The translations under genes and the position numbers were made by a program. The notes under the pieces are model-generated. The model saw only the letters and a program-made list of their open reading frames with translations. It was not told the origin of the DNA and ran no database searches. From Candidatus Latescibacterota bacterium (GTDB taxonomy: Bacteria > Latescibacterota > UBA2968 > UBA8231), in the NCBI GenBank assembly GCA_965223905.1, contig CBDCXV010000010.1, positions 1,696,001 through 1,760,000 of the forward strand: 64,000 nt of DNA. The letters run 5' to 3'. Positions 2,140 through 18,155 of the stretch are shown one piece after another. Every line of letters starts with the position of its first letter. Positions within the stretch are counted from its first letter, which is position 1.

Positions 2140-3540
2140 ATGCCACGTCCCGTTCGCATCGGCGTAATCGGCGCCGGTTCCGCCACCTTCACCCTCGGCC
2201 TCGTCAGGGACCTGAGCCTGACGCCCAACCTGAAAGGGAGCGAGGTCCACTTCATGGACATCGACGCCGAGCGCCTCGACGCGGTCACCCGCATGGCGCG
2301 GCGCTACACCGACGAGGTCGGGGCGGAGCTCCGTTTCGAGCAGACCACCGAGCGCGCCGAAGCGCTGCGCGGCTGCGACTTCGTCATCGACACCGCCATG
2401 GTGCAGAGCCATCACCACCAGGCCGGCATGAGGGAGCTGATGGCCAAGCACGGCTACTACTACCGCGGCGTCTCCGGCGGCTCCTTCTACCAGTTCCGCG
2501 TCATGATGGAGCTGGGCCGGGACATGGAGCGGCTGTGCCCGGAGGCCTGGCTGATCCAGTCGGGCAACCCGGTGTTCGACGGCTGCACCCTGATGACGCG
2601 GGAGATGCCGATCAGGATCTGCGGCCTCTGCCACGGGCATTTCGGGTACCTGCGCATCGCCGACGAGCTCGGCCTCGACCCCGACCGCGTCGACTTCGAG
2701 GCGCCCGGGGTCAACCACTGCATCTGGATGACGAGCTTCCGCTGCGACGGCGAGGACGCCTACCCGCTGATCGACCGCTGGATCGAGGAAGAGGGGGAGA
2801 ACTACTGGTCCACCCACGAGGCGGCCGGGACCCACGACATCCAGCTCTCGCGCGGCACCATCCACCAGTACCGCATGTACGGGCTGATGCCGATCGGCGA
2901 CACGCCGCGGTCGGGCGGCTGGTGGTACCACACCGACATCGACACCAAGAAGCACTGGTACGGGGAACCGTTCGGAGGCCCGGACACGCACATCGCGCGG
3001 CCGGTGTTCGTCGAGCGCCTCGACCGCAGGATGGAGCAGATACGGGCCGCGTGCGCCGACCCGGGGGCGCGCATGACCGAGGTTTTCGGCACCGAGCGCA
3101 CCCGCGAGCAGCAGGTGCCGATCATCGACGCGCTCGCCAACGACGTGCGCGGGAAGTTCCAGGTCAACGTCCCGAACCGGGGGGCCCTGCCCGGGGTCGA
3201 CGACGACGTCGTGGTCGAGGTGCCGGCGGTTATCGACGGCGAGGGGATCCGGCCGCTAAGGCTCGAGCCGCTGCCGAAGAAGATCATGCTGGAGCAGGTC
3301 CTGCCGGAGATCCTGCGCATGGAGCGGGGGTTGGAGGCATATCGCACGGGGGACCGGAGCATGCTGCTGTGGGGGGCGCTGGAGAACCACCAGACCCGTT
3401 CGTACGAGCAGGCCTGGGCGGCGCTGGAGGAGCTGCTGGAGCAGCCGGCCAACCGCGAGCTGGCCGAGCACTTCAGGTATCCGTGGGGCGAGGGGGAGGA
3501 GCGCAGGTGGCTGCGGGGGGTGGGTGAGGTGGCTGGGTAG
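2140..3540 (+). CDS. Family 4 glycoside hydrolase (NAD+-dependent alpha-glucosidase/alpha-galactosidase)
   Basis: 'IGVIGAGS', 'MDIDAERL', 'GNP', 'GLCHG', 'GVNH', 'VNVPNRG..VVEVP' GH4 motifs; ATG 2140 with GGAG upstream. Confidence 0.92.
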   Translation: MPRPVRIGVIGAGSATFTLGLVRDLSLTPNLKGSEVHFMDIDAERLDAVTRMARRYTDEVGAELRFEQTTERAEALRGCDFVIDTAMVQSHHHQAGMRELMAKHGYYYRGVSGGSFYQFRVMMELGRDMERLCPEAWLIQSGNPVFDGCTLMTREMPIRICGLCHGHFGYLRIADELGLDPDRVDFEAPGVNHCIWMTSFRCDGEDAYPLIDRWIEEEGENYWSTHEAAGTHDIQLSRGTIHQYRMYGLMPIGDTPRSGGWWYHTDIDTKKHWYGEPFGGPDTHIARPVFVERLDRRMEQIRAACADPGARMTEVFGTERTREQQVPIIDALANDVRGKFQVNVPNRGALPGVDDDVVVEVPAVIDGEGIRPLRLEPLPKKIMLEQVLPEILRMERGLEAYRTGDRSMLLWGALENHQTRSYEQAWAALEELLEQPANRELAEHFRYPWGEGEERRWLRGVGEVAG

Positions 3541-3707
3541 GGTCGCTGGCAAGCTGGGGGCAGGTTGGCCAACGGATCCTGAGGTGGTGGAGATCACTCC
3601 CGACGGCATCGGGGTGCCCGAGGAATGCTGGCAGACGCCCAGAGCGACTGAGCCGTTCTGCAAGACCGCGGGATTTCCCCGAGCCCGGGCTTACCCGCAG
3701 GTCCGCT

Positions 3708-4607
3708 TCAGGTCAGCGCCGGGGGGCGAAAGACCTCTTTCTCATGCCACTTCACGAACCTGGGGTCCGGGCCAAGGCAGGTGTTCCGGGGCGCTCGAAG
3801 CGGACTGTCGTGGTAGTCGAGGAACCAGCGGACCGGGGCGCTGAGGCCGTGGACCTCACTTGAAACAAGCACCCTGTAGCCCCCCTCTACCGGTTCCAGA
3901 CCGAGCGCGCCACGGTCGAAGGCCTTGTGGTGCAGCCCGCACAACGCCAGTCCGTTCGCGACCTCGTCGGGACCTCCGGCGGCGTGCCACTTGATGTGCG
4001 CCGCTTCCAGACCGATCAACTCATTCCCAAGTCGCACATCGAAGTCACAGACGGCGCAGCGGCGCTGGTACTCCCGCAGAACCTCGTCGCGGAAGGCCGG
4101 GTTGCGCCGCGGGGGTAGTGGCGCGTCCCGCACCGCCCAGGTTCGCGGGATTCCGACTGCATCGCGGATCTCGTCATGCAGCGATTCCGGGAAGTGCCCG
4201 TCCAGTAGTCTTTGCGACGCCTCTCTCGCCAGCTCCGGCCGGTTGCTGAGCAGGTCGTACAGCGGGGCTGGAAAACCGCCCTGCACTCCCCGCTCGCGAA
4301 GATCACGTACGCGAAGATCTCCGCTCGCGGTTCGGGACAAGGTTTCGCTCCCGGGGGTCTCCCAAAGTTCGTCGGCGGGAAGCCTGCCGAACGGGAACTC
4401 CGGACGCGGCTTGCGGGGTGGACCGAAATTTTTCAGGAGGTCCGTGAGCCGGGTCTCGATCTGCTGGTAGGAGGCAAGGCGTTCCTCCATGCGGAGGACG
4501 CGTCCGAGCGCCAACAACAGCAGCAGGGGCTTGTGCGGCGCGCGTTCACCGCGTCGCTGCCAGACGTTGATGCGCTCGATCTTCTCGAGGAACTCGTCCC
4601 GGTCCAT
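3708..4607 (-). CDS. Sulfur-binding-domain (SBD)-HNH endonuclease, putative phosphorothioate-DNA-dependent nuclease
   Basis: N-terminal 'RAPHKPLLLL' and 'PEFPFGRL' as in ScoMcrA/SprMcrA-type SBD; C-terminal CAVC...EAAHIKWH...NGLALCGLHHKAFD HNH. Confidence 0.82.
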   Translation of the reverse strand: MDRDEFLEKIERINVWQRRGERAPHKPLLLLLALGRVLRMEERLASYQQIETRLTDLLKNFGPPRKPRPEFPFGRLPADELWETPGSETLSRTASGDLRVRDLRERGVQGGFPAPLYDLLSNRPELAREASQRLLDGHFPESLHDEIRDAVGIPRTWAVRDAPLPPRRNPAFRDEVLREYQRRCAVCDFDVRLGNELIGLEAAHIKWHAAGGPDEVANGLALCGLHHKAFDRGALGLEPVEGGYRVLVSSEVHGLSAPVRWFLDYHDSPLRAPRNTCLGPDPRFVKWHEKEVFRPPALT

Positions 4608-4646
4608 AGATCAGAAAGAGGCCGAGATCCGGGCGAACCGTCAAGG

Positions 4647-5462
4647 TTACAAATGACACACGGCACAGCCTTCCGCTAAATCCGGGGCTGGGATCTCCTC
4701 CCGCTCCGGAAGCTCGGCAATTCTCAGTAGCGGCCGTCCGTCGACCCAGGTATAGCCCCGGTCTCCGGCGCTATCCTGCTCATACCCCATTGCTTTTTCG
4801 AAAAGATCGGGGTGCACCTCCTTGAGGTTCTGCCATTCCCCGACCTGCTGGTAAAAACAGAAGTAACAGCCGGAACGGGACCGCCAGCGGTAGTAGCCGG
4901 GCAACCCGATGCCTGATTCGGTCAGAATTCGCTTGATGTCCTCAAGGATCATCCCCGCGTCCTTGAAAGGGTACACGGGCAGGATGTTCGGCCGCTGGGA
5001 GATCACCGGTGGCTTCTTCGATTGGTACCCCTCCCTGTCCTCGTCACCGCGAATGCCGATGTAGCTGAACGCGTGGCTGTCGCCGACGAACCGCTCGAAC
5101 GGCTGAATCTTCAGCACTCGCGTGCACCATCTCGAACGCGGATTCGGCAGGAATCCGCCGTAGAGCTCGTTCAGGTAGACGTCGAAGGGATTGCGCCCGG
5201 GCTTCCTCGCGACTTTGAGGTCGTCGAGAGCATTGAGCCGCTGCACCTCCACGCCCAGGAGTGCTTCCAGCCGTTCGAGGTACTCGTAGGTTTCGGGCAA
5301 TTCGCAGCCGGTATCGCAGAACACGTACTCCGCGGGGATCTCAGGGAAATTCTGGCGCATGTACAGGGCGAGCGCGGTAGAGTCCTTGCCGCCGGAGATA
5401 CTGACGATGTGGCGAATGTTCTTGTCGGACAGGCTTTCAAGCGCCTCCTGCATACTAGCCAT
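4647..5462 (-). CDS. sspD: PAPS-reductase-family phosphorothioation protein (SspD/DndC-like)
   Basis: PP-loop 'SISGGKDS', 'FCDTGCE', 'RWCTRVLKI', 'RSGCYFCFYQ', terminal 'CAVCHL'; overlaps the ATPase stop. Confidence 0.82.
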   Translation of the reverse strand: MASMQEALESLSDKNIRHIVSISGGKDSTALALYMRQNFPEIPAEYVFCDTGCELPETYEYLERLEALLGVEVQRLNALDDLKVARKPGRNPFDVYLNELYGGFLPNPRSRWCTRVLKIQPFERFVGDSHAFSYIGIRGDEDREGYQSKKPPVISQRPNILPVYPFKDAGMILEDIKRILTESGIGLPGYYRWRSRSGCYFCFYQQVGEWQNLKEVHPDLFEKAMGYEQDSAGDRGYTWVDGRPLLRIAELPEREEIPAPDLAEGCAVCHL

Positions 5463-8400
5463 CGTGGGGTTCCTTCGTCCTTATTTGCCGAATTGCGGAC
5501 AGCCTCCTCTCCGCTTCCACTTCGCCGACCAGGTCGACAAGCTTGGCGAACAGTGCGCCAATACGGCCTTCGAGGAATTTCGACAAGCCGTGAGCGGCGC
5601 TGCTGTCCTCCAACAGGCCGCTGAGTTCGAGGGCCGACTCCTCGATCTGCTGCACTGTCGCCTGTAGTTCACGCTCGAAATGCGCGATGGTACTGTCGTC
5701 CCACCTGGCGAGGGGCTTACCGACGAGTAACGTGGCGAGGGAGTCCGCGAGCTTCTCGTCGGACCTGTACTTCATTTGCATGATCTTCAGCATGCTGGTG
5801 GTCGTGCTCGCCGGTCCCATCCTCTCAACGAAGCTCTGGGAAAAACAGCCGGCCCATTCCCTGGCCACGACCTGCAAGTTCTCTGCCTGATCGCGATCCC
5901 CCAGGCGTATCGCCCGGCGTACAGCCGCTCCTGCCTGTTGCGCGTACGTGCGTGTGACATCCATCAGCTCCTGCTTCGCCGCCTCTATGCCTTCGAGGGC
6001 TTCACTGGTCGCGCGGTCTTCCCCTCCTAGACGGGGCAGATCCTGCAGGATGAGGCGGACGGGGTCGCCCCCTTTGCGGATGAACTGCTGCAGTTTCTGG
6101 CCGGCTGGAGTCAGCTGGCGGGTGGTCAGGGCCGCTACCGGCAGCTGTGCCTTCCAGGCCTCCAGTGCGTCGTGACAGAGCCGGACCAGGTCGGCCTCCG
6201 GGGCTTCGTACTCCGGACCGGCGGTGAAGATGCGGTGCAGGCCGCGCAGGTACTTTTCGCTCTCGTCATCCAGCTCCAGCACGCTGACGCGGAAACGGTC
6301 CGGCTCTCGGCACAGGCTCTCGATGACGGAAGGCAGGATGTCTGCCACGTAGGCCCCGTCCTTCATCAGGGACAGGGCGCTTGGGAACGCCTTGAGTCCG
6401 GCGGCAAGCAGGATCGGCAGCAAACCTTCCCGTACCCCATGGGGCGGCTCCATCAACTTGTGCAGAAGCAGGCGAGGGTCCTTCGGCGTCGTGCTCGGCT
6501 CAGTAAGGAAGACCTCGACTTCCCTCCACACCTGCTTCAGGCCGGGGTCCTCGAGCTCTTCCGGATCCGCATATCGCCAGCGGCCGTTGTCCTGCCGGTA
6601 GAGCCCGGTGTGAAGCAGCACGCACCGGAACATCGACGAATCAGGGAAGTTCCCCTCGATGCCTAAGCCTTCCATGCCAGACCGTTCCAGGATCCCGAGC
6701 ATCAGCTTCTTGCGGGCGTTCACCACGACCGCGGAAGGACGGTGCCTGACGATCATCTCGTTGTTGATGCGGGGGCAGTGCCCGAACACTTCCTCCATGA
6801 TGTTCGACAGCGCCGTCCGCAGGCCGCGGGGGGAGTCGGCTCGCCGCATCGGCTTACCCTTGTGGAACCACCGCGGCCCATCGAAACCGGGCCAGACCAG
6901 CCGGTCCAAGAGCTGTTGCAGATGGCCTTGGGCGTCGTCGGTCATTTGCTGCAGCTCCGGACCGACGAGAGGATCGGCCCCGACAAGCTCGCTGTCGGTC
7001 TGCATCCTCAGCAGGCACCAGACCTCCAGGGCGGCCTCGCGGATCGGCAGCGGTTCCCGGGGCAGGGCCACCACGATCCGGTCGGCGTTCAGGTCCGACC
7101 GAACCGCCTGCTCGGCCTGTGAGATCTCCTCGTGGCTTTCCGCCAGGACGTACAGCACCTCTCCATCCGTGCCGGGATCGAGCCGCCTCAGGTACTGGTC
7201 CTGTCTAAGGGATTCGGGAAGGGTCGCTACGCACTCGTAGCGGCCGGCCAGGTATCTTCGGACGCAGCGCTTGGCGTTGTACTCGACGGGGCGCCAGGCG
7301 GGCGGCCTGGCTTCCTCGCTGAGGAACTTCAGGTCGTCGAACTGCTCTTCCTGCCTTCGCTTCTCCTCCTCAAGCCTGCCCCGCAAGTCGACGTCCGTGC
7401 CGTGCCATACGGCCACCTGGTCGCTGTGGCGGCGGTGCAGCAGCAACTTGCGATCGACCAGTTTCTCGACGACTTCCTCTCCCGCATCGCTCGTGGTGTA
7501 TCCCCTGAGCGCGAATTGCAGCAGGCCGAGGCCGGCGCGGGAGCGCTCGCCGCTCGTACCGAGACTGAGCAGGCAGGCTGCCTTCAGAGCCTTTGCCTCG
7601 TTTTCACCAGAGACCTTCGTCAGGGCGCTTTCCGTCTCGAGCCACTGACGGTAGGTGCCGCCAACCGATGTATCCGCCCTCATCACCGGGGCGAAGTAGT
7701 CGTACAGGGAGGCCGGTCCAACCTCCCCGTCCATATCCGCCGCGTAGAGGAAGCTGAACAGGGTGCGCTCGTTCTGCGCCACGCGGGCTGCCAGGCGAGG
7801 CAGCAGGTACAGCGTCACAGGTTCGAGGGGATATGCCCGGTGAAGCACCTGCTGGATCTCCGTGAGGGTGGCTTCTCCGAACAACCCATGAGTCTTGCAT
7901 TCACGGGCAGCCCTGAGCGCAAGGGGCCCCGCCAGCTTCTTCCCGCCTCTGCGGGAAGCCACTACCTCCGAGACGAGCCGGTAGATCTCCTTGCTCTCAT
8001 CGACGTACTGCAGGGTGCGGAAGCGGCCTTCGATCTTGGTCCACTCCGAACGGACCGACTGGGTCATGTTCCCCGCGTACTGGAGCAGACTCTGATGGAG
8101 GAACAGGCCCATCGTCGCCGGCACCCCCCTGGTGCGGCTGACGAACTCCGCCAGCACCTGGATTTCCGCCAGTGCGGAAGTCCGCCCCTCGCTGAGCAGG
8201 GCTTCGAGGTGCCGTCCGAACTCGTCCCACAGCAGGACGACCCGGTCGCACCCGCACACCGCGGCCTTCTTCTGCAGGGCGGCCAGCACGTTATCCAACC
8301 CGTTCTGCCCCCCGGTATTCAACCCTTCGATGCTCTTGGTCCGGCGCCCGAGCTTCAACCGTCTCATGCTGCGGATCGCGGCATCCCGCAACGCCTCGGC

Positions 8401-8793
8401 CACGTTCGGGCAGTACCCGTGGAGCGCCAGGACAAACCCTCGTTTTTCTGCGCTCCTTCCCCTTCTCCTCACGGAAAGAGCCAGTTCCGAACTGACCGCT
8501 TCCAGGCGATCGGTTACTTCACCCAGGGAATCGGCGGCAGCCGGCCTGTTCTCAATCACGTGCAGGGCGTAGGTCGCCGTCAGCGATTTGCCGCTTCCAT
8601 ACGGGGCCACGACGAAATAGGCGCGCTCGTTCTCTTGGCCGAAGAGGGCCTTGAGCAGGGGGACGGTCTTGGCAGTGGGACGAAAGTGGTCGATCCGCTC
8701 CGGCTCGTCGGCGTCGTAGACGAGGTTGATGGAACGCAGGAATGCGTCCTGCGAGACAGGCTCGCCCACCTCGGTTTTCCTTTTACGCTGCAT
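5455..8793 (-). CDS. sspC: Large P-loop ATPase of the Ssp phosphorothioation system (SspC-like)
   Basis: 1112 aa; Walker A 'APYGSGKS', Walker B 'LLWDEFG', 'AQNERTLFSFL'; lies between DUF4007 and PAPS reductase genes. Confidence 0.78.
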   Translation of the reverse strand: MQRKRKTEVGEPVSQDAFLRSINLVYDADEPERIDHFRPTAKTVPLLKALFGQENERAYFVVAPYGSGKSLTATYALHVIENRPAAADSLGEVTDRLEAVSSELALSVRRRGRSAEKRGFVLALHGYCPNVAEALRDAAIRSMRRLKLGRRTKSIEGLNTGGQNGLDNVLAALQKKAAVCGCDRVVLLWDEFGRHLEALLSEGRTSALAEIQVLAEFVSRTRGVPATMGLFLHQSLLQYAGNMTQSVRSEWTKIEGRFRTLQYVDESKEIYRLVSEVVASRRGGKKLAGPLALRAARECKTHGLFGEATLTEIQQVLHRAYPLEPVTLYLLPRLAARVAQNERTLFSFLYAADMDGEVGPASLYDYFAPVMRADTSVGGTYRQWLETESALTKVSGENEAKALKAACLLSLGTSGERSRAGLGLLQFALRGYTTSDAGEEVVEKLVDRKLLLHRRHSDQVAVWHGTDVDLRGRLEEEKRRQEEQFDDLKFLSEEARPPAWRPVEYNAKRCVRRYLAGRYECVATLPESLRQDQYLRRLDPGTDGEVLYVLAESHEEISQAEQAVRSDLNADRIVVALPREPLPIREAALEVWCLLRMQTDSELVGADPLVGPELQQMTDDAQGHLQQLLDRLVWPGFDGPRWFHKGKPMRRADSPRGLRTALSNIMEEVFGHCPRINNEMIVRHRPSAVVVNARKKLMLGILERSGMEGLGIEGNFPDSSMFRCVLLHTGLYRQDNGRWRYADPEELEDPGLKQVWREVEVFLTEPSTTPKDPRLLLHKLMEPPHGVREGLLPILLAAGLKAFPSALSLMKDGAYVADILPSVIESLCREPDRFRVSVLELDDESEKYLRGLHRIFTAGPEYEAPEADLVRLCHDALEAWKAQLPVAALTTRQLTPAGQKLQQFIRKGGDPVRLILQDLPRLGGEDRATSEALEGIEAAKQELMDVTRTYAQQAGAAVRRAIRLGDRDQAENLQVVAREWAGCFSQSFVERMGPASTTTSMLKIMQMKYRSDEKLADSLATLLVGKPLARWDDSTIAHFERELQATVQQIEESALELSGLLEDSSAAHGLSKFLEGRIGALFAKLVDLVGEVEAERRLSAIRQIRTKEPHDG

Positions 8794-9219
8794 GGAGACC
8801 CTTCATCTGCAGGAACCGTTGCAGGCCCTCGACGCACACCGCCTTGTCGAAGCGCTGCAGCTTGAAGCTGTTGAAGAACCAATCCCAGGTGGTCGCGTGC
8901 TCCTCGCTGCTGATCAGGTTCACGTGAAGCGCTCACCAGGTGCCTATGTCGGTGAAGTAGGGGTCGCGCTCCCAGACGAGATTGCCCAAGGGGGTAGGTT
9001 GCAACGGGGCGCTCTTTCGAGGCCGCCTTCCCGAGACTTGCTCGCACAGGCCGGTCGCCTGAAGCCATACCGGATCGACTTGGCCATGTTGCGGCCCACG
9101 CCGAGCCAGTCGGCAACGTGCTCGCCGATGAGTTTCTCGGGCTCTTCGACGACGAGCTTCAACCCTTTGTGCAGCCACCCTTCCCGAACGGGGAAGGTCT
9201 CGTGTCCACCGAACCTCAT
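8783..9219 (-). pseudogene. sspB: SspB/DUF4007 nickase pseudogene
   Basis: MRFGGHETFPVREGWLHKG...LGVGRNMAKSIRY, then a 1-nt deletion near 9067, then WLQATGL...DPYFTDIGTW, in-frame TGA at 8933-8935, then ALHVNL...ATTWDWFFN...; ends after about 145 codons, roughly half the usual length. Confidence 0.85.
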
Positions 9220-10399
9220 CCGGCCACCTCCGAAAGCTCCATGCGGCTTGTGTCTCTCCAGTCCGAAAACGCCCTGATCCGGGCGACCACTTCCGCTACG
9301 GTCTCGGCGGCAGCGGCCACCTCCTCCTCGCTGTTCAGCACCGACATGCTGAAGCGGACGCTTGCGTACGCCTCCTCTTCGGTCAGTGCCATGGCCCGCA
9401 GCACGTGCGACGGCTCGGGCCGGTGGTTGGTGCATGCCGAACTCTGCGAACACCGGATCCCGCGCTGGTCCAACCGGGCTACCATTGCCTGTCCGTCCAC
9501 GCCGTCAAAGAGCAGGTTCGTCGTGTTGCACACGCGGGTGGCGCGCCCCCCGTTCACCGACACGCCGGCGCACCGGTCCACGATCTCGCTTTCGAACAGA
9601 TCGCGCAGCCTGCCGAGCTTGGTGATCGTCTCGGGGAGAGAGCCTGCACGGATGCCGGCAGCACATCCCATGCCGGCGATGCCCGGGACGTTCTCGGTTC
9701 CGGCCCGCAGGCCCGACTCCTGATCGCCGCCGTCCAGGAGCCCCCTGACCTCGACGCTGCCGCGCAGGTACAGGGCTCCTGTACCGGGCGGAGCGTGGAA
9801 CTTGTGCCCTGCAATCGACGCGAAGTCTATCGGCAGTTCCCGCAGATTCACCGGCAGCTTACCGACTGCCTGGGCCGCGTCAGTGTGGAAGGGCATTCCG
9901 GCTTCCGAGCAGATCCGCCCTAATTCCTCAACCGGTTGGGCGACCCCGGTCTCGCTGTTCACCCACTGAATCGATACCAGGGCGGCTTCCCCGGCGACCG
10001 CTTCCCGCAGGTCCTCCGAATCCACGATCCCGCTTCTGCCGACAGGAAGCAGCACGACTTCCGTTCCTTCACCCTCGGTCCTTTCGAGGGCGGCGAGGAC
10101 TGAGGAGTGTTCGACTGCGGTCGAGACGATCCTTTTTCCCGGCCCGGAGAAGCTGCGGATGACGGTGTTGTTCGCCTCGGTGGCGCCGCTGGTGAAGATG
10201 ATGGAGTCGGGCTGGCATCCGAGAAGTGAGGCCAGCGACGACCTGGCGTTGCGCAGCTGCCCGCGCGCACGGTCGCCGGCGGCATGGCTGCTGGAGGGAT
10301 TGCCGAACGTCCCCCCCATCGCATTCAACACGGCGGCGCGAACCTCGGGCAGTGCCTGAGTCGTCGCGTTGTTGTCGAGATAGATCTCGGAAGGTCCAT
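9216..10399 (-). CDS. sspA: Cysteine desulfurase (SspA/IscS-like), possible 5' frameshift
   Basis: 'IYLDNNATT', 'GNPSS.H', 'FTSGATEANN', 'HTDAAQAVGK', 'AGHKFH', 'RAGTEN', 'SQSSAC'. The ATG at 10399 is 1 nt out of frame with IYLDNN, and the first in-frame start (GTG 10331) lies downstream of that motif. Confidence 0.85.
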
Positions 10400-10579
10400 G
10401 CTCAGGGCCTGAGAGGGTGCAGATGAGAGGTGGGTGTTGCGAATCGGAGGGCGAGGCAAGGCCCGTCTGGTCTCAGATGGGAACAAAAACGAGGCCAGGT
10501 TTCGGGGGGTGGCGAGCAGTCCAAGCCGGGGACCCTGGGAGATTTCAAGAGGTATTCAAGCCCTGAACTGTCCTAACCT

Positions 10580-10626
10580 ATCCCAAATGTTGGGGAGTGG
10601 TCAAGCGAATTCCCAAGATGTTGGGG
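10580..10626 (-). promoter_or_regulatory. Tandem NrdR-box-like operators flanking a putative -35 of the ssp operon
   Basis: Minus-strand 16-mers CCCCAACATCTTGGGA (10611-10626) and CCCCAACATTTGGGAT (10580-10595), starts 31 bp apart; TTGACC (10599-10604) between them and TAGGTT (10575-10580) 18 nt further on. Confidence 0.6.
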
Positions 10627-10802
10627 TTTCCTGGTGAAAGAGCACCGGGGGAGTAGCCGGTTCCGCTCGGTCGTGGATCTGTTCCCTTAAGGTCGCAGTA
10701 ACGGCGGCTATTGGATACGGTTAATATACTGAACAAAAGTGCACACTGGCAAGGTCGGGTGCAACAGATTCTGCCAGCACTTCGGGCCCTCTGGAACGGT
10801 CG

Positions 10803-12311
10803 TCAGTCAAGCATGGTGGCCGCCAAACGGCCCATTCGCATGCAAACACGCCGGTATAGAAGGCTGAAGCGATCGCGCCAGCCCGCTCTCTTCTCCTTGA
10901 GGAATGGATACGTCGGCCGCCCGCGCTCGCCGAGGCCGAACCGCCTGTGGGTGAACTCGCAACTATCCACACAACGATCCGGATGTTCGAGCCACTGCGT
11001 CTCGGCTTCCACGAACCTGTGTTCGAAGGACCACTGGCCCGCAGTCGCTCCGCAGTCGTGCCACCAATCCTGGCCGACCAAATAGCGGACGAGGATGCGC
11101 ATCTCCTCGGCAGCTACAACATTGCAGAATGCGATCGTGTTCTGGCCGGGCTCTGGGCCGTCGTTCACTTCATCGTTGATGTACCGTCCTCTGCGTCTTA
11201 TGCCTAACCGCTCGTCTCTCGCGTCACTACTGGTGTACTGACCTCGGCAGCGCAGGCAGCGCATGTCCGGCCCCACCAAGTGGACGTTCCACTTTGCGGA
11301 GAGCAACCGCTCCCTCGATTCCACGAGAACGCCACCATCGATCAACGGAAGGCAGTTCGAATACGCGATGTGGTTAAGAACCTCGCGCGCCTCCGGATTG
11401 TCGACGCAGCATAGGATGATGTCCGCGTCGGCCGTGTGTCGATATGCCCGTTCGGTGCGTATCGACAGTGGCACAGCCCGAATGACCGGCCTCCCGGCCG
11501 TGGCCACCTTTCGAAGGTGTGCCGCCGCTACCTCCGCCTTTGGCAGCCCTAGGCAGTGCCGGTCGGCGTAGATCAAGCGATCCAGGTTCCTTTCCTCGAC
11601 CCAGTCTGAATCAACGACGGTGATTTCCTCGAATCCTGTGCGCGTTAGACACTCCAGCACGATGGAGCCGACACTTCCCGCTCCCACAACGCAGATGTGC
11701 GTACGAGCCAGCCGTGCCTGCGCTTCCACTCCCCAGCAATCCAACGTCCGCACCAAGCTTTGTCGGCGGACATAGGGAGGGTAGGCGTCCGGTGGGGAAT
11801 CGGCACTCGTGGATCGGGCTCCGACGCGCCGCACGTCCGTGCAGTGAACGGGCTGGACGCCGCGCCCCGATTCCCGCCAGAACCGTGCGCTCCAGCAACC
11901 GTCTGAGCCCATTGTCATCCCCAACAGAGGCAGTCGAGTCTCGCGGACGAACGGGGCGATCACGTTGCGCTCTGTATCGTGGTCCAAATCGCTCATCCCC
12001 TGCCAGCCGGATCCGGGATGGCTGTGCAGCACGGCTACCCCCGCCTCCGCCTTAAGCGCGCGGTCGAGCACTCGGTTCAGGTAGCCGCTATGCACTGTCA
12101 CATTCCCGTGCAGATCTCGATCCCCATCTTCAGGAAGGACGACTTCCCCGAGGATTCCCGTATAGCGGTTGAAACCGTCCCCCCGGCGCCACAGGGCCAA
12201 ACAAGCCTCCTCCTGGCAATGGCCATGTCGGAATCCACTCAGCAGGTGGTCTGCGAGTTCAGGGTGAAGTGCTTCCCGTATCACGACCCGATGGATGGGG
12301 ATTATATACAT
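10803..12311 (-). CDS. JAB/MPN peptidase - ThiF/E1 adenylation fusion (bacterial ubiquitination-like)
   Basis: JAB: 'EEACLALW', 'HSHP...MSDLD'; E1: 'VVGAGSVGS', 'D.VEERNLDRL', 'CCVDN..AR', 'CLRC', C-terminal 'CVDSC'. Confidence 0.85.
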   Translation of the reverse strand: MYIIPIHRVVIREALHPELADHLLSGFRHGHCQEEACLALWRRGDGFNRYTGILGEVVLPEDGDRDLHGNVTVHSGYLNRVLDRALKAEAGVAVLHSHPGSGWQGMSDLDHDTERNVIAPFVRETRLPLLGMTMGSDGCWSARFWRESGRGVQPVHCTDVRRVGARSTSADSPPDAYPPYVRRQSLVRTLDCWGVEAQARLARTHICVVGAGSVGSIVLECLTRTGFEEITVVDSDWVEERNLDRLIYADRHCLGLPKAEVAAAHLRKVATAGRPVIRAVPLSIRTERAYRHTADADIILCCVDNPEAREVLNHIAYSNCLPLIDGGVLVESRERLLSAKWNVHLVGPDMRCLRCRGQYTSSDARDERLGIRRRGRYINDEVNDGPEPGQNTIAFCNVVAAEEMRILVRYLVGQDWWHDCGATAGQWSFEHRFVEAETQWLEHPDRCVDSCEFTHRRFGLGERGRPTYPFLKEKRAGWRDRFSLLYRRVCMRMGRLAATMLD

Positions 12312-12341
12312 AATTCAGCAAGTCTAATTTTAGTAATCTCA

Positions 12342-12376
12342 TCCGCGAAATTAAAGAAAATCTGGTATAATATAAT
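12342..12376 (+). repeat. 35-bp subterminal direct repeat, copy 1 (copy 2 at 16250-16284)
   Basis: TCCGCG-N9-AAAATCTGGTATAA(T/C)ATAAT; 28/35 identical; contains extended -10 TGGTATAAT. Confidence 0.7.
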
Positions 12377-12480
12377 AGAGAAAATACCAGAGAGAAGGAC
12401 ATCCCAGGTCCTCAAGTGTTTAGCCTCGAACACACGGCAGCATGCCATATTGGCACCGTGGGTCTGGGTCGATACGCGCA

Positions 12481-13368
12481 TCATTTTCCGGATCTGCATA
12501 TCGTGGAGGCATGAAGGTCCAAGGTTACCGTTTTGATGACGTTTTCATATACCCTAATCCCATCAGCAAAAACGAGCTCCCGAGAATCGGGAGACCATGC
12601 TATACTATTGCTCCCCAGTTCCCACTTGTGTATAAGCTTCTTGTTGGAGCCATCCAGGTCCATTGTCCATACGCTTTTCTCGTATCCTGCGATCTTATCG
12701 TCCGGGAAATCGCTGTAGTCGTCCCGATTAAATTCTTCCCCACGAACAATAACTGCCATCCTTTTCCCGTTAGGAGCTACGTCAGAATATGTGCCTTTGC
12801 TTATGAAGTGCGACGTATCTCCATCGGTTATCCAGACCTCCGAGCTTCTTGTCCAGTATATGATGCGTCCACCGGGAGCCCATGTAATCCCGAAAATTTG
12901 CCTGCTGTCTAATACATCATTAGGGATACGTTTGACAACGCCACCTTCCAGAGTTATTACAATAATTTCCTGGGCTCCTCCTCCTAAGAATAGAAAAGCC
13001 AATAGATCATCTCCAACAGGAGACCATTCCACAGATCTTAATGGTCCGTCACTCCCGCTATTAAAGATTGGCCATTCTGGCCTTTCGGAACCATCTAAGC
13101 TCCTCCAAGTAACTCCCCAATCATCAAAGCCCATTTCACTTGCGTTAAAAGCATAGGCCATCCTTGTTCCATCCGGAGATAGATCTCCCCGATAGACCAG
13201 GTTATAGTTGCCCAATTTTGTAAAGTGAGAATTGTCTGGATCAACTACACCAAATCCGTATTTTTTGTTTCCCCTTTCCACTTTCCAGGAGAAATCGAAA
13301 TAAACCTGTCCCCAGACGGAAGACGCTACTATCAGAATAATAACTGACACTCCGGCAAGTCTTTGCAT
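12481..13368 (-). CDS. Secreted TolB-like (PD40) beta-propeller protein
   Basis: Signal peptide; repeated 'SPDG', 'WSP', 'WAPGG', 'VWTMDLDGSN' blades; low GC. Confidence 0.75.
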   Translation of the reverse strand: MQRLAGVSVIILIVASSVWGQVYFDFSWKVERGNKKYGFGVVDPDNSHFTKLGNYNLVYRGDLSPDGTRMAYAFNASEMGFDDWGVTWRSLDGSERPEWPIFNSGSDGPLRSVEWSPVGDDLLAFLFLGGGAQEIIVITLEGGVVKRIPNDVLDSRQIFGITWAPGGRIIYWTRSSEVWITDGDTSHFISKGTYSDVAPNGKRMAVIVRGEEFNRDDYSDFPDDKIAGYEKSVWTMDLDGSNKKLIHKWELGSNSIAWSPDSRELVFADGIRVYENVIKTVTLDLHASTICRSGK

Positions 13369-13369
13369 T

Positions 13370-14380
13370 TCACTTACTCTTCACCTCTCCCCAGGTTGCA
13401 GGAGAAACCCTCGTAGTTTTGTCTCCCGAAGGCGACCAAGCTATTGAGTTTATGTACTCGGGAAAATCAATTATATCTCGTACGATGCCATCCAGAGAAA
13501 CAGCCTTAATCTCTCTAATTGTAATAAAAGCAACCTCCCTGGAATCAGGAGACCAAGAAATGCGGAACTCTTGTAAGGGTACGTATCCTCTGAATTGATG
13601 TACCAGTTTTCTGTTGCTGCCATCCATATCCATTACCCATATTTCCAAATCAGTTGGACTACTTCCTGTATATCCTGGAGCAATTAAAAAAGCTACTTTC
13701 GTTTCATCCGGAGATACGTCTGGGCTTCTTCCTTCTCCCAATGACTGTGAAAAATCACCGTCTGTAATCCACATTTCGCCTGACTCACTGTATATGAATT
13801 GTCCATCTGGAGCCCAATCGCAATACTTGTAAGTTCCATACTTTGCTTCAGTGGAAATTTCTTGTAGTATGATCCCTCGTCTTATGTCGCTAAATGGATC
13901 TACTACAATTAATTCAGGAGGTTCAGAAGGTTGAATATCGGCAAATAAGAGTATCTTTGTCCCGTCAGGTGACCATCTTGGAGAATAAATACGTGGAGTA
14001 TCTGACGATCCCTGATAGAAAACATATTTCCATGATTGATACGGGTCGTCATTGTCATGAATGTTCCCCCATTTTGGGAGGTAGTCCCAACGGTTTGACA
14101 TTGTGAGGCCATATGATGTTCCATAGCTTTTAACTGAACTGTAGACATCTATGATGTAATTACCGTCAGGAGATAGATCAAATGCCTCACCGGTCCAATA
14201 TCCTATAAGGGTAGAGGGATCAGTTCCCTTAGAATCTGTGTAGTAACTTGCTCCCTCTTCTGCAATAAAAGCTATCTCGTCTGCTCCGGATGCCACTATC
14301 CCGAGGCAGGAAAGAACAACTATTATGGTAATCATATGGCCGCTCCTTAGTGATGTAAGCAGACGTATTTCCGCGTTCAC
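13370..14380 (-). CDS. Secreted TolB-like beta-propeller protein with C-terminal 'SPATWGEVK' motif
   Basis: Signal-like N-terminus; 'WSPDG', 'SPDVSPDETKVAF', 'IWVMDMDGSN' repeats; ends TTRVSPATWGEVKSK. Confidence 0.78.
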   Translation of the reverse strand: MNAEIRLLTSLRSGHMITIIVVLSCLGIVASGADEIAFIAEEGASYYTDSKGTDPSTLIGYWTGEAFDLSPDGNYIIDVYSSVKSYGTSYGLTMSNRWDYLPKWGNIHDNDDPYQSWKYVFYQGSSDTPRIYSPRWSPDGTKILLFADIQPSEPPELIVVDPFSDIRRGIILQEISTEAKYGTYKYCDWAPDGQFIYSESGEMWITDGDFSQSLGEGRSPDVSPDETKVAFLIAPGYTGSSPTDLEIWVMDMDGSNRKLVHQFRGYVPLQEFRISWSPDSREVAFITIREIKAVSLDGIVRDIIDFPEYINSIAWSPSGDKTTRVSPATWGEVKSK

Positions 14381-14535
14381 TTCAATGATGACTTTATCTG
14401 TCCCCAGGTTGCAGGACGAACACTCGTTGCCCCACTGCCTGGAATCCAGTCAACGTCCCATACAACATCAGTCTCAAACAGAAACACAGAGTCCGTTCCG
14501 TCCGCATCTACCATGTAAAGACCGCGCCCAGTGAT
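14377..14535 (-). pseudogene. 3' remnant of a third TolB-like paralogue
   Basis: Reads ...LYMVDADGTDSVFLFETDVVWDVDWIPGSGATSVRPATWGQIKSSLK*, with an in-frame stop upstream; its stop overlaps the GTG of the next paralogue. Confidence 0.7.
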
Positions 14536-14809
14536 TCAGGACGATCTGAATTAACCTCAAGCGCGACTTCCAGACTGAATTGTCAACCAGGGTCCAGAAC
14601 AATTCCACCCGTTCGTAGGGAAATCCCAAAGCCTTCGGCCTTATCGAGGATGGAATCGTCATTGAACCTCAGATGCCTGACCCCTCCTGGATCTTGTTAG
14701 CTGTCCGGGTGGAAAAGTCGGAATCGGAAGGACCTGGGGGTTAGAAATGTGCGTGAGAGGCGTGTGGTGTTTCGCCCGCGAGGAAATCAAGCCTGTCAGG
14801 GAATTACCG

Positions 14810-15076
14810 TTAAGAACGGAGAGCTCTGCCATATGCATCTCCAAACTCTTCCAGAGACTCGCGAAGTTTGCTAATGTCCCGAATCACAGCCTGATGCTTG
14901 TTCCGGAAAAGAGAAATCTCGTCCGCGTCTGAAAGTGTGCGAAGTGAAGGAAAATCCGATAGCCTGGGCCTATGAGTAGTCTCAAAGACCGTCTTTTCCC
15001 TTGATAGCCAGTTTATTTGATCTTGAAGTTTTTGGTCGAATATCTCAATCGTGCGTTCAATCTCTTCATGATTCAT
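14810..15076 (-). CDS. Hypothetical protein (88 aa, helical)
   Basis: ATG with GGAGGA upstream; low-GC passenger region. Confidence 0.5.
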   Translation of the reverse strand: MNHEEIERTIEIFDQKLQDQINWLSREKTVFETTHRPRLSDFPSLRTLSDADEISLFRNKHQAVIRDISKLRESLEEFGDAYGRALRS

Positions 15077-15135
15077 AGTAAGAACGAATCCTCCGGTTCA
15101 AGCGCCTTTTAAATTTAAATTCTCTTCTTCCCTGA

Positions 15136-15930
15136 TCAGTCCTGCAAGCCGTCGTTTAGGTCAGGAGAATAGTTATCAGAAATCACTCGGAAAATGTAAT
15201 CCGCCAAGATAAGCATATTTAAGCTATGCTTATACGTAGAGTAGGGCACTAAACCATGCACCACAGCATGGCGATTCGGAACAGAATCCCTGATATATCC
15301 TTCCCTATTACTGTCAGTTACTCCTTCATAAATATGCTCCACAAGGCGTCCAAAAAGGATCAGTCCATGCGCTTTTTTTGGCAGAAAATCCTCTAACGAT
15401 CCACGATTGGCAAACGATTCAAGGAGCTTCTTCGAGCCAATACGACCTGCCTTGTCCTCAAAAACACACTCCCTGAGTATTCGTTCCATTTCAGGAAACA
15501 ACAATCGACAGACACATCGATGAAGACCTTCTCTATGAGCGATCAAGGCTTCCCGGAAGGTCTCTTTGCTCTCTTCTGAGATAGGACAGGTTACTAATCG
15601 TAGCTCCATCTCTTGCTGAATACGGTTCCAGTTCTTCCTATAGAACTCGGACAAACGACGATCCAATAGAGAGGTATCTCCGGCACAAGCTTCTACAAGC
15701 TGGATGGAAACAGAATCGTAAGGCAGCCAACCTGTTGCATCTACTGAATCCATGAAATCTGAGTACCTTTGAAAATGGCTTAAATGCCTAACGAAGAGGC
15801 AGTCTTTTCCCCCGTCTCTTTCATTCAGCAATCCGGCCATGCCTTCATTTCCCTCCTTTCCACCTATATGGCCCCCGGGATGATCGAGATCGAGTTGTGA
15901 GGCCAAGATGTTCATCACTTCTCCTCCCAC
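15136..15930 (-). CDS. Putative HEPN-domain protein
   Basis: 'FREALIAH..G', 'LFPEMERILR' and C-terminal 'PNRHAVVHG' (R-X4-H); true start uncertain. Confidence 0.55.
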   Translation of the reverse strand: MGGEVMNILASQLDLDHPGGHIGGKEGNEGMAGLLNERDGGKDCLFVRHLSHFQRYSDFMDSVDATGWLPYDSVSIQLVEACAGDTSLLDRRLSEFYRKNWNRIQQEMELRLVTCPISEESKETFREALIAHREGLHRCVCRLLFPEMERILRECVFEDKAGRIGSKKLLESFANRGSLEDFLPKKAHGLILFGRLVEHIYEGVTDSNREGYIRDSVPNRHAVVHGLVPYSTYKHSLNMLILADYIFRVISDNYSPDLNDGLQD

Positions 15931-16249
15931 CGGCGCGCCAGGAAGGCGATCCCGGAACCGGCTTCCCTTCTCTGTCTACTATCCGCTACTGTTTACCGAA
16001 ACTTGTACCACGCTAAATCCATTCTAACCCATTCTTTCCTGCAGGCAACGGCAAGGTAAGGGCAGACGGCTGTTACCGCTACCGGCTCGATGAACTCTGC
16101 CACGGGTTCCCCCCTCCAATCCCGATCCTACCGGACCCGAATACCCTTTCAATACCCCGCCCAGGCAAGCTGTCTCAGGGTCGTTTTCTCTACCCCTTCG
16201 TCGGTGAAGGAGGTCCTAACCGAAAAAACGTTCCTGATTGCCGGTCAGG

Positions 16250-16284
16250 TCCGCGTTTTTCGAAAAAATCTGGTATAACATAAT
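16250..16284 (+). repeat. 35-bp subterminal direct repeat, copy 2
   Basis: TCCGCGTTTTTCGAAAAAATCTGGTATAACATAAT, matches 12342-12376. Confidence 0.7.
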
Positions 16285-16308
16285 GGAAAGGTATCTAACC
16301 CCGATGGA

Positions 16309-16735
16309 TCAACGCGCCCTCCAGATCCTACGGAGATGTCGGTCCAGGTAGGTTCTCAGGCTCTTTCCGTCCGGCGTCTCGATCTGGTCCCAGAAGTCCC
16401 CCCGACGGGGCACTGATCGCCATCCAACTGAGCCCGTCTTCCCCTTCATAGTGGTTGACGACTCCCCTCGGCTGCGACCCCTTGACCTGCTCTGCCAGGA
16501 CATCATCCGGCGGCGACAAGTACAGCCAGTGTGGCGCAACTTCGGGCCATTCTCCTTCGTCTGGGTGCAGGGCGAGCCCCAACGTCACGGTCTCTCCAGC
16601 GCGACTGCCGTCCTCGATCTGATAGTCGAAGCGGACACCTTCTGCACCGCCTTGGTCCTTTGGCGCCGAGAACGACTCGTGCCGGTAGCCCAGCCCGGCA
16701 AGCTCCGCCGCCATTCGCTCCGAGTTCTGGCTCAT
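16309..16735 (-). pseudogene. Prokaryotic E2/UBC-like protein, +1 frameshift in a G6 tract (real or sequencing error)
   Basis: MSQNSERMAAELAGLGY...FDYQIEDG..AGETV..G...WPEVAPHWLYLSPP...WMAISAPS, then G6 at 16398-16403, then DFWD...SLRTYLDRHLRRIW; 141 aa if repaired, no Cys. Confidence 0.65.
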
Positions 16736-16817
16736 GCGAAAGGCGCACCTTTCTCGGGTGCCGCCCGGAAGATTTTGTAGTTTGTCAACTGTAGGTTGTG
16801 CGAAAGGAGAGAATGGC

Positions 16818-17915
16818 ATGTTTGGAATACGACTTCGGCTCGCTCGTAAGCGAGCAGGCCTTTCCTTGCGGTCACTTGCAGAACAGATGGAGCCGAGAGT
16901 CACCGCGCAGGCCATCAGCAAGTACGAGGCGGGCATGATGATGCCCTCTTCGTCGGTTCTGGTTGGCCTCGGCAAGGCGCTTGACGTCTCGCTGGACTTC
17001 CTCATGAGCGCCCAAGTCGAGGCGGTCGACGGCCTTGAGTTCCGCAAGCATTCCAGCACTTCGCCGAGCGACCGCGCGAAGGCCGAAGCCGTCCTGATCG
17101 ACAACCTTGAGCGGTATCTGACCATCGAAGAGGTTCTCGAAGTACCCCCGCCGGGCGACTCGTTCGAGGACCGCCGCTACGACAGCGTCGCTACCGAAGA
17201 AGAGATCGACACTAGGGCCGATGAGGTCCGCAACGCGTGGGACCTTGGCAACGATCCAGTGCCCAGCCTATGCGCCCTCCTTGAGGAAAAGGGAATAAAG
17301 GTGGTCGAAGGAGACCTCCCTGAGCGCATCAGCGGCTTGGCGTGCCGCGTCATGCGAGACGGCAGGGTGGTCGCCGATGCAGTAGCGGTATCGAAGCGGA
17401 CGAACGTGGAGCGCAAACGCCTCACCCTGGCCCACGAACTCGCACACAGAATCATCCGTTCCACCGGAAACCCCGCCATCAAGCTGGAGGCCGCAATGAA
17501 CCGCTTCGCAGGCGCCTTCCTCGTCCCACGCAAACATCTCCTCAAGGAAGCCGGAGCAAGCCGTCACCGCGTCACCTACTACGAGATCATCCGCCTCAAG
17601 CACACCTACGGCGTCTCAGCGGCCGCAATGTTGGTCCGCCTCGGTCAAGTCGGCATCCTGCGTCCTTCCGCCGTCGAGCGCGCCTTCAGATCCTTTGCCC
17701 GCTCTTGGCGCAAGACGGAACCAGAACCGATCGGCTCCGATCAAGGATTCGGGGCATTCGAGAAGCCCCAGCGCTTTGAGCGACTTGTCTGGCGCGCCAT
17801 CGGCGAAGAGCTGATCTCGCCGGTGCGTGCGGCCGCTCTTCTCAACGAGTCCCTCGACGCGGTCGAGCAGCAGATCAGCGGTCCGCTATCCAGTGACGTG
17901 TGTCATTGTCAATGA
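16818..17915 (+). CDS. XRE HTH - ImmA/IrrE metallopeptidase fusion
   Basis: 'RLRLARKRAGLSLRSLA...ISKYEAG' HTH; 'RLTLAHELAH', 'E..MNRFAGAFLVP'; SD GAAAGGAG. Confidence 0.9.
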   Translation: MFGIRLRLARKRAGLSLRSLAEQMEPRVTAQAISKYEAGMMMPSSSVLVGLGKALDVSLDFLMSAQVEAVDGLEFRKHSSTSPSDRAKAEAVLIDNLERYLTIEEVLEVPPPGDSFEDRRYDSVATEEEIDTRADEVRNAWDLGNDPVPSLCALLEEKGIKVVEGDLPERISGLACRVMRDGRVVADAVAVSKRTNVERKRLTLAHELAHRIIRSTGNPAIKLEAAMNRFAGAFLVPRKHLLKEAGASRHRVTYYEIIRLKHTYGVSAAAMLVRLGQVGILRPSAVERAFRSFARSWRKTEPEPIGSDQGFGAFEKPQRFERLVWRAIGEELISPVRAAALLNESLDAVEQQISGPLSSDVCHCQ

Positions 17916-18070
17916 CGCTTCCTGCCTGATCGACCTCCGCAAGGGTGGATTGCTGGAGGCCCTCTGCAATCTGCCGTACCGACTCGTGGTTCCGCTGCCC
18001 GTACGCGCGTCGGAAGTCCTCGACTTCGCCGACCAGCAATGGCAACACCTCGAGGACCACGGCATGATCG
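17893..18070 (+). pseudogene. Truncated PIN-domain protein
   Basis: GTG start overlapping the ImmA gene; 'VIVNDASCLIDL..GGLL..L..LP...P..V..E' PIN N-terminus; similarity lost after about 59 aa. Confidence 0.7.
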
Positions 18071-18155
18071 ACTCGAGTCTTTGGCCGGACGGCTTTGACG
18101 GTTGCGGGCTACCCCCACTGCATGCGGGGACCCCGACACAGATGCGCGCCATCGG

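Follow-up and report, generated by a model that had tools for sequence, protein, structure and literature searches.

Some nucleases that read phosphorothioate (PT) marks in DNA are encoded beside PT writers, and it is not settled whether they help those writers or oppose them: passages of Lutz 2020 speak for conflict, and passages of Rakesh 2024 for partnership. For about 84% of sspBCD clusters no restriction partner is known, according to parts of one survey (PMC8092258). Here we analysed a 64,000-nucleotide stretch of a Latescibacterota genome (G000:C10:1696001-1760000, where G000 is the label of the source genome; hereafter the window), in which an Ssp operon for PT writing ends in a gene for a nuclease with a sulfur-binding domain (SBD) and an HNH domain. 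Does this SBD-HNH nuclease work with the writer, or has it outlived it? Our results make it likely, though by no means certain, that the locus is what remains of an Ssp writer, next to a type IV nuclease that is still live and depends on PT, and that reciprocal loss of the two in related genomes reflects conflict between writer and reader. The locus and its relatives amount to a natural experiment, in which several species have the same operon by descent, each with damage to a different part of it.

An Ssp operon that ends in an SBD-HNH gene

The operon comprises five genes in tandem on the minus strand: sspA, a remnant of sspB, sspC, sspD and the SBD-HNH gene. The ssp genes were named by PADLOC profiles (PDLC ids), and the Pfam domains of the operon proteins are Aminotran_5, DUF4007, PAPS_reduct and HNH_2. 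An ATGA (9219-9216) is common to the sspA stop and the sspB start, the native sspB stop (8785-8783) overlaps the sspC ATG (8793) by 11 nucleotides, and sspC overlaps sspD by 8 nucleotides. The junctions from sspA to sspD are those of a coupled operon. The sspD stop is at 4649-4647 and the HNH gene begins with an ATG at 4607, leaving 39 nucleotides in between. These coordinates and junctions confirm what an earlier note, made from the sequence of the window, had described as a coupled sspA-B-C-D operon with an SBD-HNH gene on the same strand 39 bp after sspD. A consensus scan of 3400-10900 for promoters and terminators gave site counts at chance level; one sigma-70-like site was found upstream of sspA where 0.6 would be expected by chance, and no promoter-like site in the 39-nucleotide spacer or elsewhere upstream of the HNH gene.

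The nuclease matches NCBIfam NF045808 ('phosphorothioated DNA-binding restriction endonuclease') well above the cut-off, over profile positions 3-284 of 284. Its SBD occupies approximately residues 4-139 (4598-4191) and its HNH motif residues 184-237 (4058-3897), the latter coinciding with the PF13391 match (E 1.9e-10). The N-terminus resembles SBDs of solved structure, as the earlier note had expected: residues 4-125 align with that of SprMcrA (7cc9, E 5e-9) and residues 18-139 with those of ScoMcrA (5zmo/5zmm, E 4e-7 to 2e-8). The sulfur-holding residues named for ScoMcrA in the relevant passage of Liu 2018 (PMC6224610) are H116, R117, Y164 and P165. In the window protein, H25-K26-P27 align with the ScoMcrA His-Arg-Pro (H116-R117) and F71-P72-F73 with Tyr-Pro-Phe, so that Pro72 corresponds to P165 and Phe71 to Y164. 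Among 11 relatives, Lys26 and Pro72 never vary and His25 hardly does; the four Cys, the His and the Asn of the HNH motif are invariant too, with C184, C187, H204, N218, C223, H226 and H227 among these residues. With a score above the family cut-off, an SBD that keeps its sulfur-pocket residues and a Cys4 HNH nuclease domain, the protein falls into the NF045808 class. From these features we infer an SprMcrA/EcoWI-type nuclease, whose N-terminal domain is predicted to bind the PT sulfur and whose HNH domain is predicted to cut nearby.

The writer is broken in sspA and sspB

We mapped the lesions of sspB by DNA alignment against the intact genes of G104, G166 and G167, and found three: a one-nucleotide deletion between 9067 and 9066, a TGG-to-TGA change at 8935-8933, and a deletion of 468-471 nucleotides with its junction near 8802/8801, which removed the C-terminal half and kept the native stop. 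What is left of the DUF4007 profile is positions 1-138 of 288, with 1-52 and 53-138 in two frames interrupted by one TGA and 139-288 gone. Thus the knock-out of sspB claimed in the earlier note holds. It had overlooked a frameshift in sspA, a one-nucleotide deletion at codon 3 (between 10395 and 10394, from alignment with G103, G104 and G166). The sspA frame from ATG 10399 ends after 24 codons, and the only open frame that remains runs from GTG 10331 to the stop at 9216, which would cost about 22 N-terminal residues if translation restarted there. In total there are four writer lesions in G000, three in sspB and one in sspA, and none in sspC, sspD or the HNH gene; SspC and SspD are both full length.

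Two public runs, X1 and X2, contain 95-97% of sampled words of the stretch and are probably from its source sample. Contigs built independently from these runs are identical to the window over 8300-8863, 8951-10203 and 10177-10600, spans that include the sspB deletion junction and both one-nucleotide deletions; the identical pieces stop short of 8864-8950, where the sspB TGA lies. A related strain in X2 and in a third run, X3, has the undeleted bases at 10394 and 9066, so the contig comparison was able to see them. X1 and X2 also contain contigs that skip 55 nucleotides between 8748 and 8804 (depth 12-14), probably a second strain with another sspB/sspC junction.

We found no replacement for the lost writer genes. 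The source genome, an 11-contig assembly of metagenome type with 93.56% completeness and 5.11% contamination, has a single DUF4007 locus and hence no second sspB; it has a single SspD, no DndC and no DGQHR protein. SspD is not fused to DUF4007 in the manner of BrxP: it has 271 amino acids and scores 35 bits against BrxP. BrxZ and BrxL gave no match at E<=1e-15 among the 38 open reading frames (ORFs) of the window. For the desulfurase the case differs, as a housekeeping enzyme (IscS) can replace SspA in PT writing according to part of PMC12914056, and one could stand in for the frameshifted sspA here. An Ssp match at this locus is not a working Ssp system, which is a warning for annotation.

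Known effectors were likewise not found, in keeping with the earlier note: neither SspE (DUF262 plus DUF1524) nor SspFGH is present in the window or the genome. A match to SspH was rejected as a hidden partner, being confined to the C-terminal domain, which was matched in 8 of 14 control genomes as well. Six DUF262 (GmrSD_N) proteins (C2:641729, C10:1626218, C9:833649, C1:660655, C10:874590 and C10:667027) match SspE profiles over about 100 N-terminal residues only; their best matches are HEC-06, Orf5, NsnA and PDC-M55C instead, and we rejected them as hidden SspE. Six such proteins in one genome are a heavy load of modification-dependent or related nucleases.

The pairing recurs in Latescibacterota with different lesions

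Our phylum set comprised 168 genomes, with an NF045808 match above the cut-off in 15 and SspD in 44. The HNH gene directly follows sspD in G000, G103 and G104, which belong to one genus, in G167 and G118, and, across a contig break, in G125; in a further locus (L096) only the tail of sspD is left before the HNH gene. With relatives from outside the phylum there are nine same-strand loci in all, so the pairing proposed in the earlier note does recur.

The lesions differ from genome to genome. G103 carries the operon at the same chromosomal site as G000, with sspC and sspD proteins 91% and 98% identical; its sspB has deletions of 598 and 30 nucleotides whose end points are unlike those of G000, and its sspA, sspC, sspD and HNH genes are all intact. 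In G104, sspB is intact (302 amino acids), sspC is lost except for its last 39 codons, the adjoining HNH gene is frameshifted, and a second, intact HNH gene lies elsewhere in the genome. In G167 a DDE transposase gene stands at the place of sspC. G118 and G125 have the order TonB receptor-sspC-sspD-HNH, with neither sspA nor sspB, and the sspC of G125 contains a stop. At the same TonB site, G142, G133, G146 and G134 carry sspA-B-C-D, 88-95% identical to G118, and no HNH gene. We considered whether an ORF of 698-798 amino acids upstream of sspC in G118 and G125 might be a fused SspA/B; Pfam identifies it as a TonB-dependent receptor, a flanking gene. No spare sspB was found in G103, G118 or G125, and no spare sspC in G104 or G167 by a search that found SspC in all three positive controls. 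Writers that adjoin an HNH gene show six or more separate lesions, and the lesions among the same-strand sspD-HNH loci are mostly independent.

Intact sspABCD operons that have no HNH gene are often followed by a familyless protein of 420-457 amino acids and a DGQHR/DndB-like protein (TIGR03187, 93-115 bits). We saw the pair in L018 (5558-8055, in G166), L019, L071 (10-2127), L112-L116 and L121; L071 has an HNH gene as well. PADLOC models of Ssp effectors do not match this pair, which may be an unrecognised Ssp partner module.

Writer and reader are not intact together in the phylum

Next, we counted intact writers with and without an adjacent HNH gene. A locus counted as intact when, for each of SspB, SspC and SspD, a single stop-free tblastn segment spanned at least about 85% of the query; this coverage misses missense changes, regulatory damage and very early frameshifts, so that the sspA of the window scored 99% covered. 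One locus (L026, in G032) was left out because its 3.5-kb contig is too short. None of the nine same-strand sspD-HNH loci (from Latescibacterota, Poribacteria and Desulfococcaceae) had intact sspB, sspC and sspD, nor did any of the seven HNH-adjacent loci within the phylum. The HNH-less set was 19 loci from 18 of the 38 SspD genomes that have no adjacent HNH gene. Fourteen of these 19 loci were intact, two were ambiguous (G139b and G011) and three were broken. The difference was significant in Fisher's test, uncorrected for kinship (0/7 versus 14/19, p=0.0012; 0/9 versus 14/19, p=0.0006).

A similar picture emerged for whole genomes. Nine genomes were informative for both kinds of gene, after exclusion of G123 (contig-end fragments) and of G089 and G090 (HNH-only matches of about 80 bits with no SBD). 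Writer and HNH gene were both intact in none of the nine: six had an intact HNH gene and a broken writer, and three (G134, G146 and G135) had an intact writer and a broken HNH gene. The HNH copies of the latter three are not adjacent to the ssp locus, and carry a frameshift, end at residue 205 or survive only as a remnant. This reciprocal loss argues that Ssp writing and the SBD-HNH family do not coexist stably in the phylum.

Loss of sspC occurred at least three separate times in this bacterial family (L024 in G164, L025 in G159, L013 in G104 and L015 in G167). The end points differ, once a DDE transposase has taken the place of the gene, and sspA, sspB and sspD stay intact. Two of these four genomes are devoid of any SBD-HNH gene.

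Selection and the ancestral state

Ratios of nonsynonymous to synonymous substitution (dN/dS) were computed by the NG86 method. Between G000 and G103 (dS 0.24-0.40), dN/dS was 0.19 for sspC, 0.05 for sspD, 0.20 for sspA and 0.12 for the HNH gene; the HNH value was 0.12 against G167 too, and sspD ranged over 0.03-0.08 across comparisons. For reference, sspC gave 0.17 in the intact pair G166-G165. These ratios point to an HNH gene that is intact and maintained under purifying selection. As the operon occupies the same chromosomal site in G000, G103 and G104 with differing lesions, the writer was still whole in their common ancestor and already accompanied by the HNH gene. The low dN/dS of the writer genes means either that the writers broke recently or that sspC and sspD still matter.

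Relatives beyond the phylum

Relatives of the HNH protein were sought in species genomes (best 80 of 464 examined) and in metagenomes (best 80 of 414); most of the close ones come from metagenome-assembled genomes of Binatia, Acidobacteriota, Poribacteria, Entotheonella, Gemmatimonadota and similar groups. SspB, SspC or SspD genes flank nine of the best 80 of 464, and two of these nine loci are the G103 and G167 places. L101 (Poribacteria) has sspB, sspC and sspD-HNH on one strand, its sole lesion being a frameshift near the 3' end of sspC. L090 (Desulfococcaceae) is a decayed locus with sspD as a fragment only. L075 has intact sspB and sspC, no sspD and an HNH gene 3.8 kb off, and in L036 the HNH gene is 5 kb off on the opposite strand.

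Further genes accompany the ssp genes in two loci. Small genes lie in L101 between sspB and sspC (2435-3533, one of them Gp49/HigB-like, PF05973) and between sspC and sspD (7042-7808). L145 (396-8694), a metagenome contig that places an SspD-HNH pair in very different surroundings, reads 242-amino-acid ORF, HNH, SspD, 213-amino-acid ORF, then a PDC-S37/Hhe-like protein of more than 1700 amino acids, with neither sspB nor sspC.

Relic, system or decay

How are these findings best explained? On the reading that we favour, the locus would be the relic of an sspABCD-SBD-HNH operon whose writer is dead, with no spare copy in the genome. The HNH gene would now most likely provide type IV, PT-dependent restriction, cutting incoming PT-marked DNA in a host that is itself PT-free. 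A writer lost while the HNH gene is kept under selection fits a nuclease that is harmless when PT is absent, which is type IV behaviour; there is no hint that loss in the opposite order would be lethal. Writer and reader would have been in chronic conflict, which was presumably resolved repeatedly in the phylum by loss of one partner, here the writer. This reading joins the observed gene identities, lesions, recurrence and reciprocal loss to three things that we infer: PT-dependent cutting, absence of PT from the host, and conflict as the cause of the losses. Self-damage would have been mild and not lethal, since Ssp marks are sparse and lie on one strand. In part of PMC10602919, restriction by an SBD nuclease is reported as only 10-fold for the one-strand CpsCA writer of Vibrio, compared with 1000-fold for a two-strand writer.

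The earlier note had left two alternatives, a working Ssp variant whose effector reads the PT mark and a self-toxic nuclease that selected for loss of sspB. Loss of the writer by conflict is the better fit to the absence of intact loci and of genomes with both intact, and the working variant fits this locus less well. Such a variant, with a PT-reading effector, may have existed in the ancestor or in L066 and L071, the loci with sspBCD and HNH all intact.

Several observations weigh against conflict as the explanation. Kin are not independent, the counts are uncorrected for this, all genomes are metagenome-type assemblies, and the HNH-less comparison covers 18 of the 38 SspD genomes. Three of its 19 loci are broken as well, two through lack of sspC (G164 and G159) and one through a stop in sspD (G165). 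The frameshift of L101 may be an assembly error. In L066 (Thermoanaerobaculia) and L071 (Multivoraceae), where the HNH gene is divergent from sspB-C-D-A, sspBCD and HNH are intact, and a split sspA is the only damage in L071; thus, intact loci number 0/9 in the same-strand arrangement versus 2/2 in the divergent one. Full DndC-D-E sets adjoin HNH relatives in L079, where the Dnd set is complete, and in L132, L151, L190 and L198 (the last four among the best 80 of 414 metagenome relatives, many on contigs too short to judge); L030 has a truncated set. Bacteroides salyersiae makes PT with an mcrA homologue in the same BREX type 4 operon, according to part of PMC12914056. The differing lesions of G000, G103 and G104 at one chromosomal site, and dN/dS of 0.05-0.2 for sspA, sspC and sspD, as low as in intact loci, mean that the intact writer and the HNH gene coexisted for long in the ancestor. 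Finally, all four lesions of G000 hit sspA or sspB and spare the 4.2 kb occupied by sspC and sspD, for which the chance is about 0.03-0.04 on the assumption that the whole operon was free to decay after the first lesion. Both genes may thus still matter, and their lesion-free state is the main thing that the conflict reading leaves unexplained. That both coexisted in the ancestor, that neither divergent locus is broken and that Dnd neighbours are intact as well speaks for a conflict that is mild or context-dependent; sparse one-strand marks, sequence context and separate regulation are possible softening factors.

It is also possible, as a tentative reading, that SspABCD-SBD-HNH makes up a genuine kind of mobile PT defence, of which L066 and L071 would be examples of cassettes that are still intact. 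With an effector that reads PT directly, the system would be prone to autoimmunity and unstable in evolution; the reciprocal wreckage in Latescibacterota would be its signature, the ancestor of the window would have run the complete system under selection, and sspC-sspD-HNH may keep part of it. The HNH proteins divide into three groups, in step with the grouping of SspD and of SspC; the genes thus move as cassettes. L066 and L071 share 91% identity in SspD, 63% in SspC and 59% in HNH across phyla, which points to transfer of a shared cassette between phyla.

Less probable is a reduced functional system in which SspD, with or without SspC, and the SBD-HNH protein still work together after the loss of SspA and SspB. 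Such a module would account for an intact sspD beside the HNH gene in eight loci (G000, G103, G104, G167, G118, G125, L101 and L145), for sspD dN/dS values this low between genomes that all have broken writers, for the intact 1112-amino-acid sspC of G000 and G103 with the G000 lesions confined to sspA and sspB, and for the bare sspC-sspD-HNH trio of G118. Low dN/dS can be explained by recent death of the writer, however, and G104, G167 and L145 have no sspC, G125 has a stop in it, and L090 and L096 retain sspD fragments only. We know of no role of SspD outside PT writing. Parts of PMC12914056 bear on both sides: B. salyersiae BREX type 4 has a PAPS-reductase gene beside mcrA and brxC, whereas the minimal writers described there need a DUF4007 domain, either in sspBCD, the minimal PT-writing set, or in BrxP, an SspD-SspB fusion. 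Because BrxP contains the SspB domain, PT writing by SspC and SspD without SspB, on the model of BrxP and BrxC, was rejected as unsupported.

Defence loci turn over fast, and plain neutral decay of an unused defence island would involve no conflict, the HNH gene being either not yet broken or kept for unrelated reasons. The three broken HNH-less loci and the damage to both writer and HNH in G104 are in line with such decay, and counts among kin overstate significance. It is nevertheless improbable, as none of the nine genomes has writer and HNH both intact, even where the HNH copy lies remote from the ssp locus, intact HNH genes have at least six independent writer lesions beside them, the HNH dN/dS is low, and HNH-less sister loci at the same chromosomal site are intact.

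That G000 itself has a working Ssp variant is very improbable. PT would still be written there, with SspB unneeded or otherwise supplied, and the SBD-HNH protein would replace SspE as a PT-sensing effector. The coupled operon has the HNH gene in the usual effector position, the ancestor was intact and under selection, and other effectors are to be expected if, as stated in part of Wang 2021 (PMC8092258), 2,211 of 2,678 sspBCD clusters have neither SspE nor SspFGH and 83.9% have no known partner. Against it stand the three lesions of sspB and the one of sspA, of which the deletion junction and both one-nucleotide deletions are supported by run contigs, and the want of a second DUF4007 in a 93.6%-complete genome when sspBCD is the minimal set in the published passages (PMC12914056).

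We consider it hardly credible that the operon is truly intact, with lesions that arose only in assembly or polishing. Single-base indels are familiar as errors and this is a metagenome-type assembly in 11 contigs, yet a deletion of about 470 nucleotides is unlike an indel error, the related strain displays the undeleted bases, and contigs of X1 and X2, runs from which the assembly itself may have been made, agree exactly with the window at the junction and at both one-nucleotide deletions.

Reciprocal loss provides comparative genomics with a signature for use on PT systems of every kind.

Feature coordinates and neighbouring genes

Table 1. Operon features and the upstream promoter-like site, in window positions
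Feature	Position	Strand	Evidence
sspA (cysteine desulfurase)	9216..10399	-	ancestral ATG 10399, stop 9216; PDLC02759 381 bits, TIGR03235 280 bits
sspB remnant (DUF4007)	8783..9219	-	PDLC02762 90.5 bits, profile positions 1-51 only
sspC (BrxC/PglY-like ATPase), intact, 1112 amino acids	5455..8793	-	PDLC02779 519 bits, positions 4-1050/1054
sspD (PAPS-reductase-like ATP pyrophosphatase), intact, 271 amino acids	4647..5462	-	PDLC02782 301 bits, PF01507
sspD-HNH spacer, 39 nucleotides	4608..4646	-	read directly from sequence
SBD-HNH nuclease, intact, 299 amino acids	3708..4607	-	NF045808 299.6 bits (cut-off 180), PF13391 HNH_2
sigma-70-like consensus match, weak	10723..10752	-	10/12 matches

Downstream, a family-4 glycosyl hydrolase gene is convergent with the HNH gene. 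Upstream of sspA, the stretch from about 10756 to 18163 is specific to G000, and G103 and G104 run from upstream of sspA straight to window position 18164 onward. Its GC content is 43-50% around 12.5-16 kb, compared with about 65% elsewhere. It encodes a 502-amino-acid ThiF/E1-like protein (10803-12311) with weak matches to CBASS-type E1-E2 and '6A-MBL cap2_3' models, two PD40/WD40-repeat proteins (12481-13368 and 13370-14380) and an RmrA/CapP-like protein (16734-17915). The stretch may be an inserted defence island.

Comparison with known systems

The earlier note had raised the possibility of an undescribed Ssp variant. A full-text search found no published account of SBD-HNH genes in Ssp operons, although supplements may list Ssp cases, and the words HNH and McrA are absent from the text of Wang 2021 (PMC8092258). 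For PT writers in general the idea is less new, as SBD-HNH genes beside them are in print for Dnd (PMC7461809 and PMC10853773) and for BREX type 4 (PMC12914056).

The SspABCD-SspE system is said to have been described by Xiong in 2020 as a PT defence system. The window shares with SspABCD-SspE/SspFGH the order sspA-B-C-D, the overlapping junctions and an effector-like nuclease gene directly downstream; it differs in having neither SspE nor SspFGH and in its broken sspA and sspB. SspE is active against phage only when the host has PT, whereas the SBD-HNH enzyme is expected to cut PT-marked DNA itself.

Dnd loci with HNH genes resemble the window in encoding a PT-reading HNH nuclease beside a PT writer. 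A protein with wHTH(SBD), SAD(SRA) and HNH domains occurs in the Dnd locus in 698 taxa and is proposed as an alternative restriction component in the relevant passage of Rakesh, Aravind and Krishnan 2024 (PMC10853773), which does not deal with Ssp neighbourhoods. These systems differ in their two-strand PT and in their often three-domain proteins, proposed there as true restriction partners, and the Dnd sets beside HNH relatives in our small sample of five look intact, unlike the same-strand Ssp loci. According to parts of Lutz 2020 (PMC7461809), fewer than 3.6% of predicted PT-dependent nucleases adjoin dnd clusters, and where they do, the cluster is expected to be mutated, the enzyme to be inactive or the sequence context to differ.

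The BREX type 4 operon of B. salyersiae (brxP, mcrA and brxC) is similar in joining a PAPS reductase and a BrxC/SspC-type ATPase with an mcrA homologue in one operon. As described in part of PMC12914056, it has a fused BrxP, an undamaged writer with measured PT, and both brxZ and brxL, whereas in the window SspD is unfused and sspB is dead.

The nuclease itself is most like SprMcrA and EcoWI, two-domain enzymes of about 300 amino acids with an N-terminal SBD, conserved His, Lys/Arg and Pro in the sulfur pocket and a C-terminal Cys4 HNH domain; from ScoMcrA it differs in having Phe as the equivalent of Y164. The characterised enzymes are solitary and come from PT-free hosts, as far as the sections concerned of PMC7461809 and PMC6224610 describe them, whereas the gene in the window ends an Ssp writer operon.

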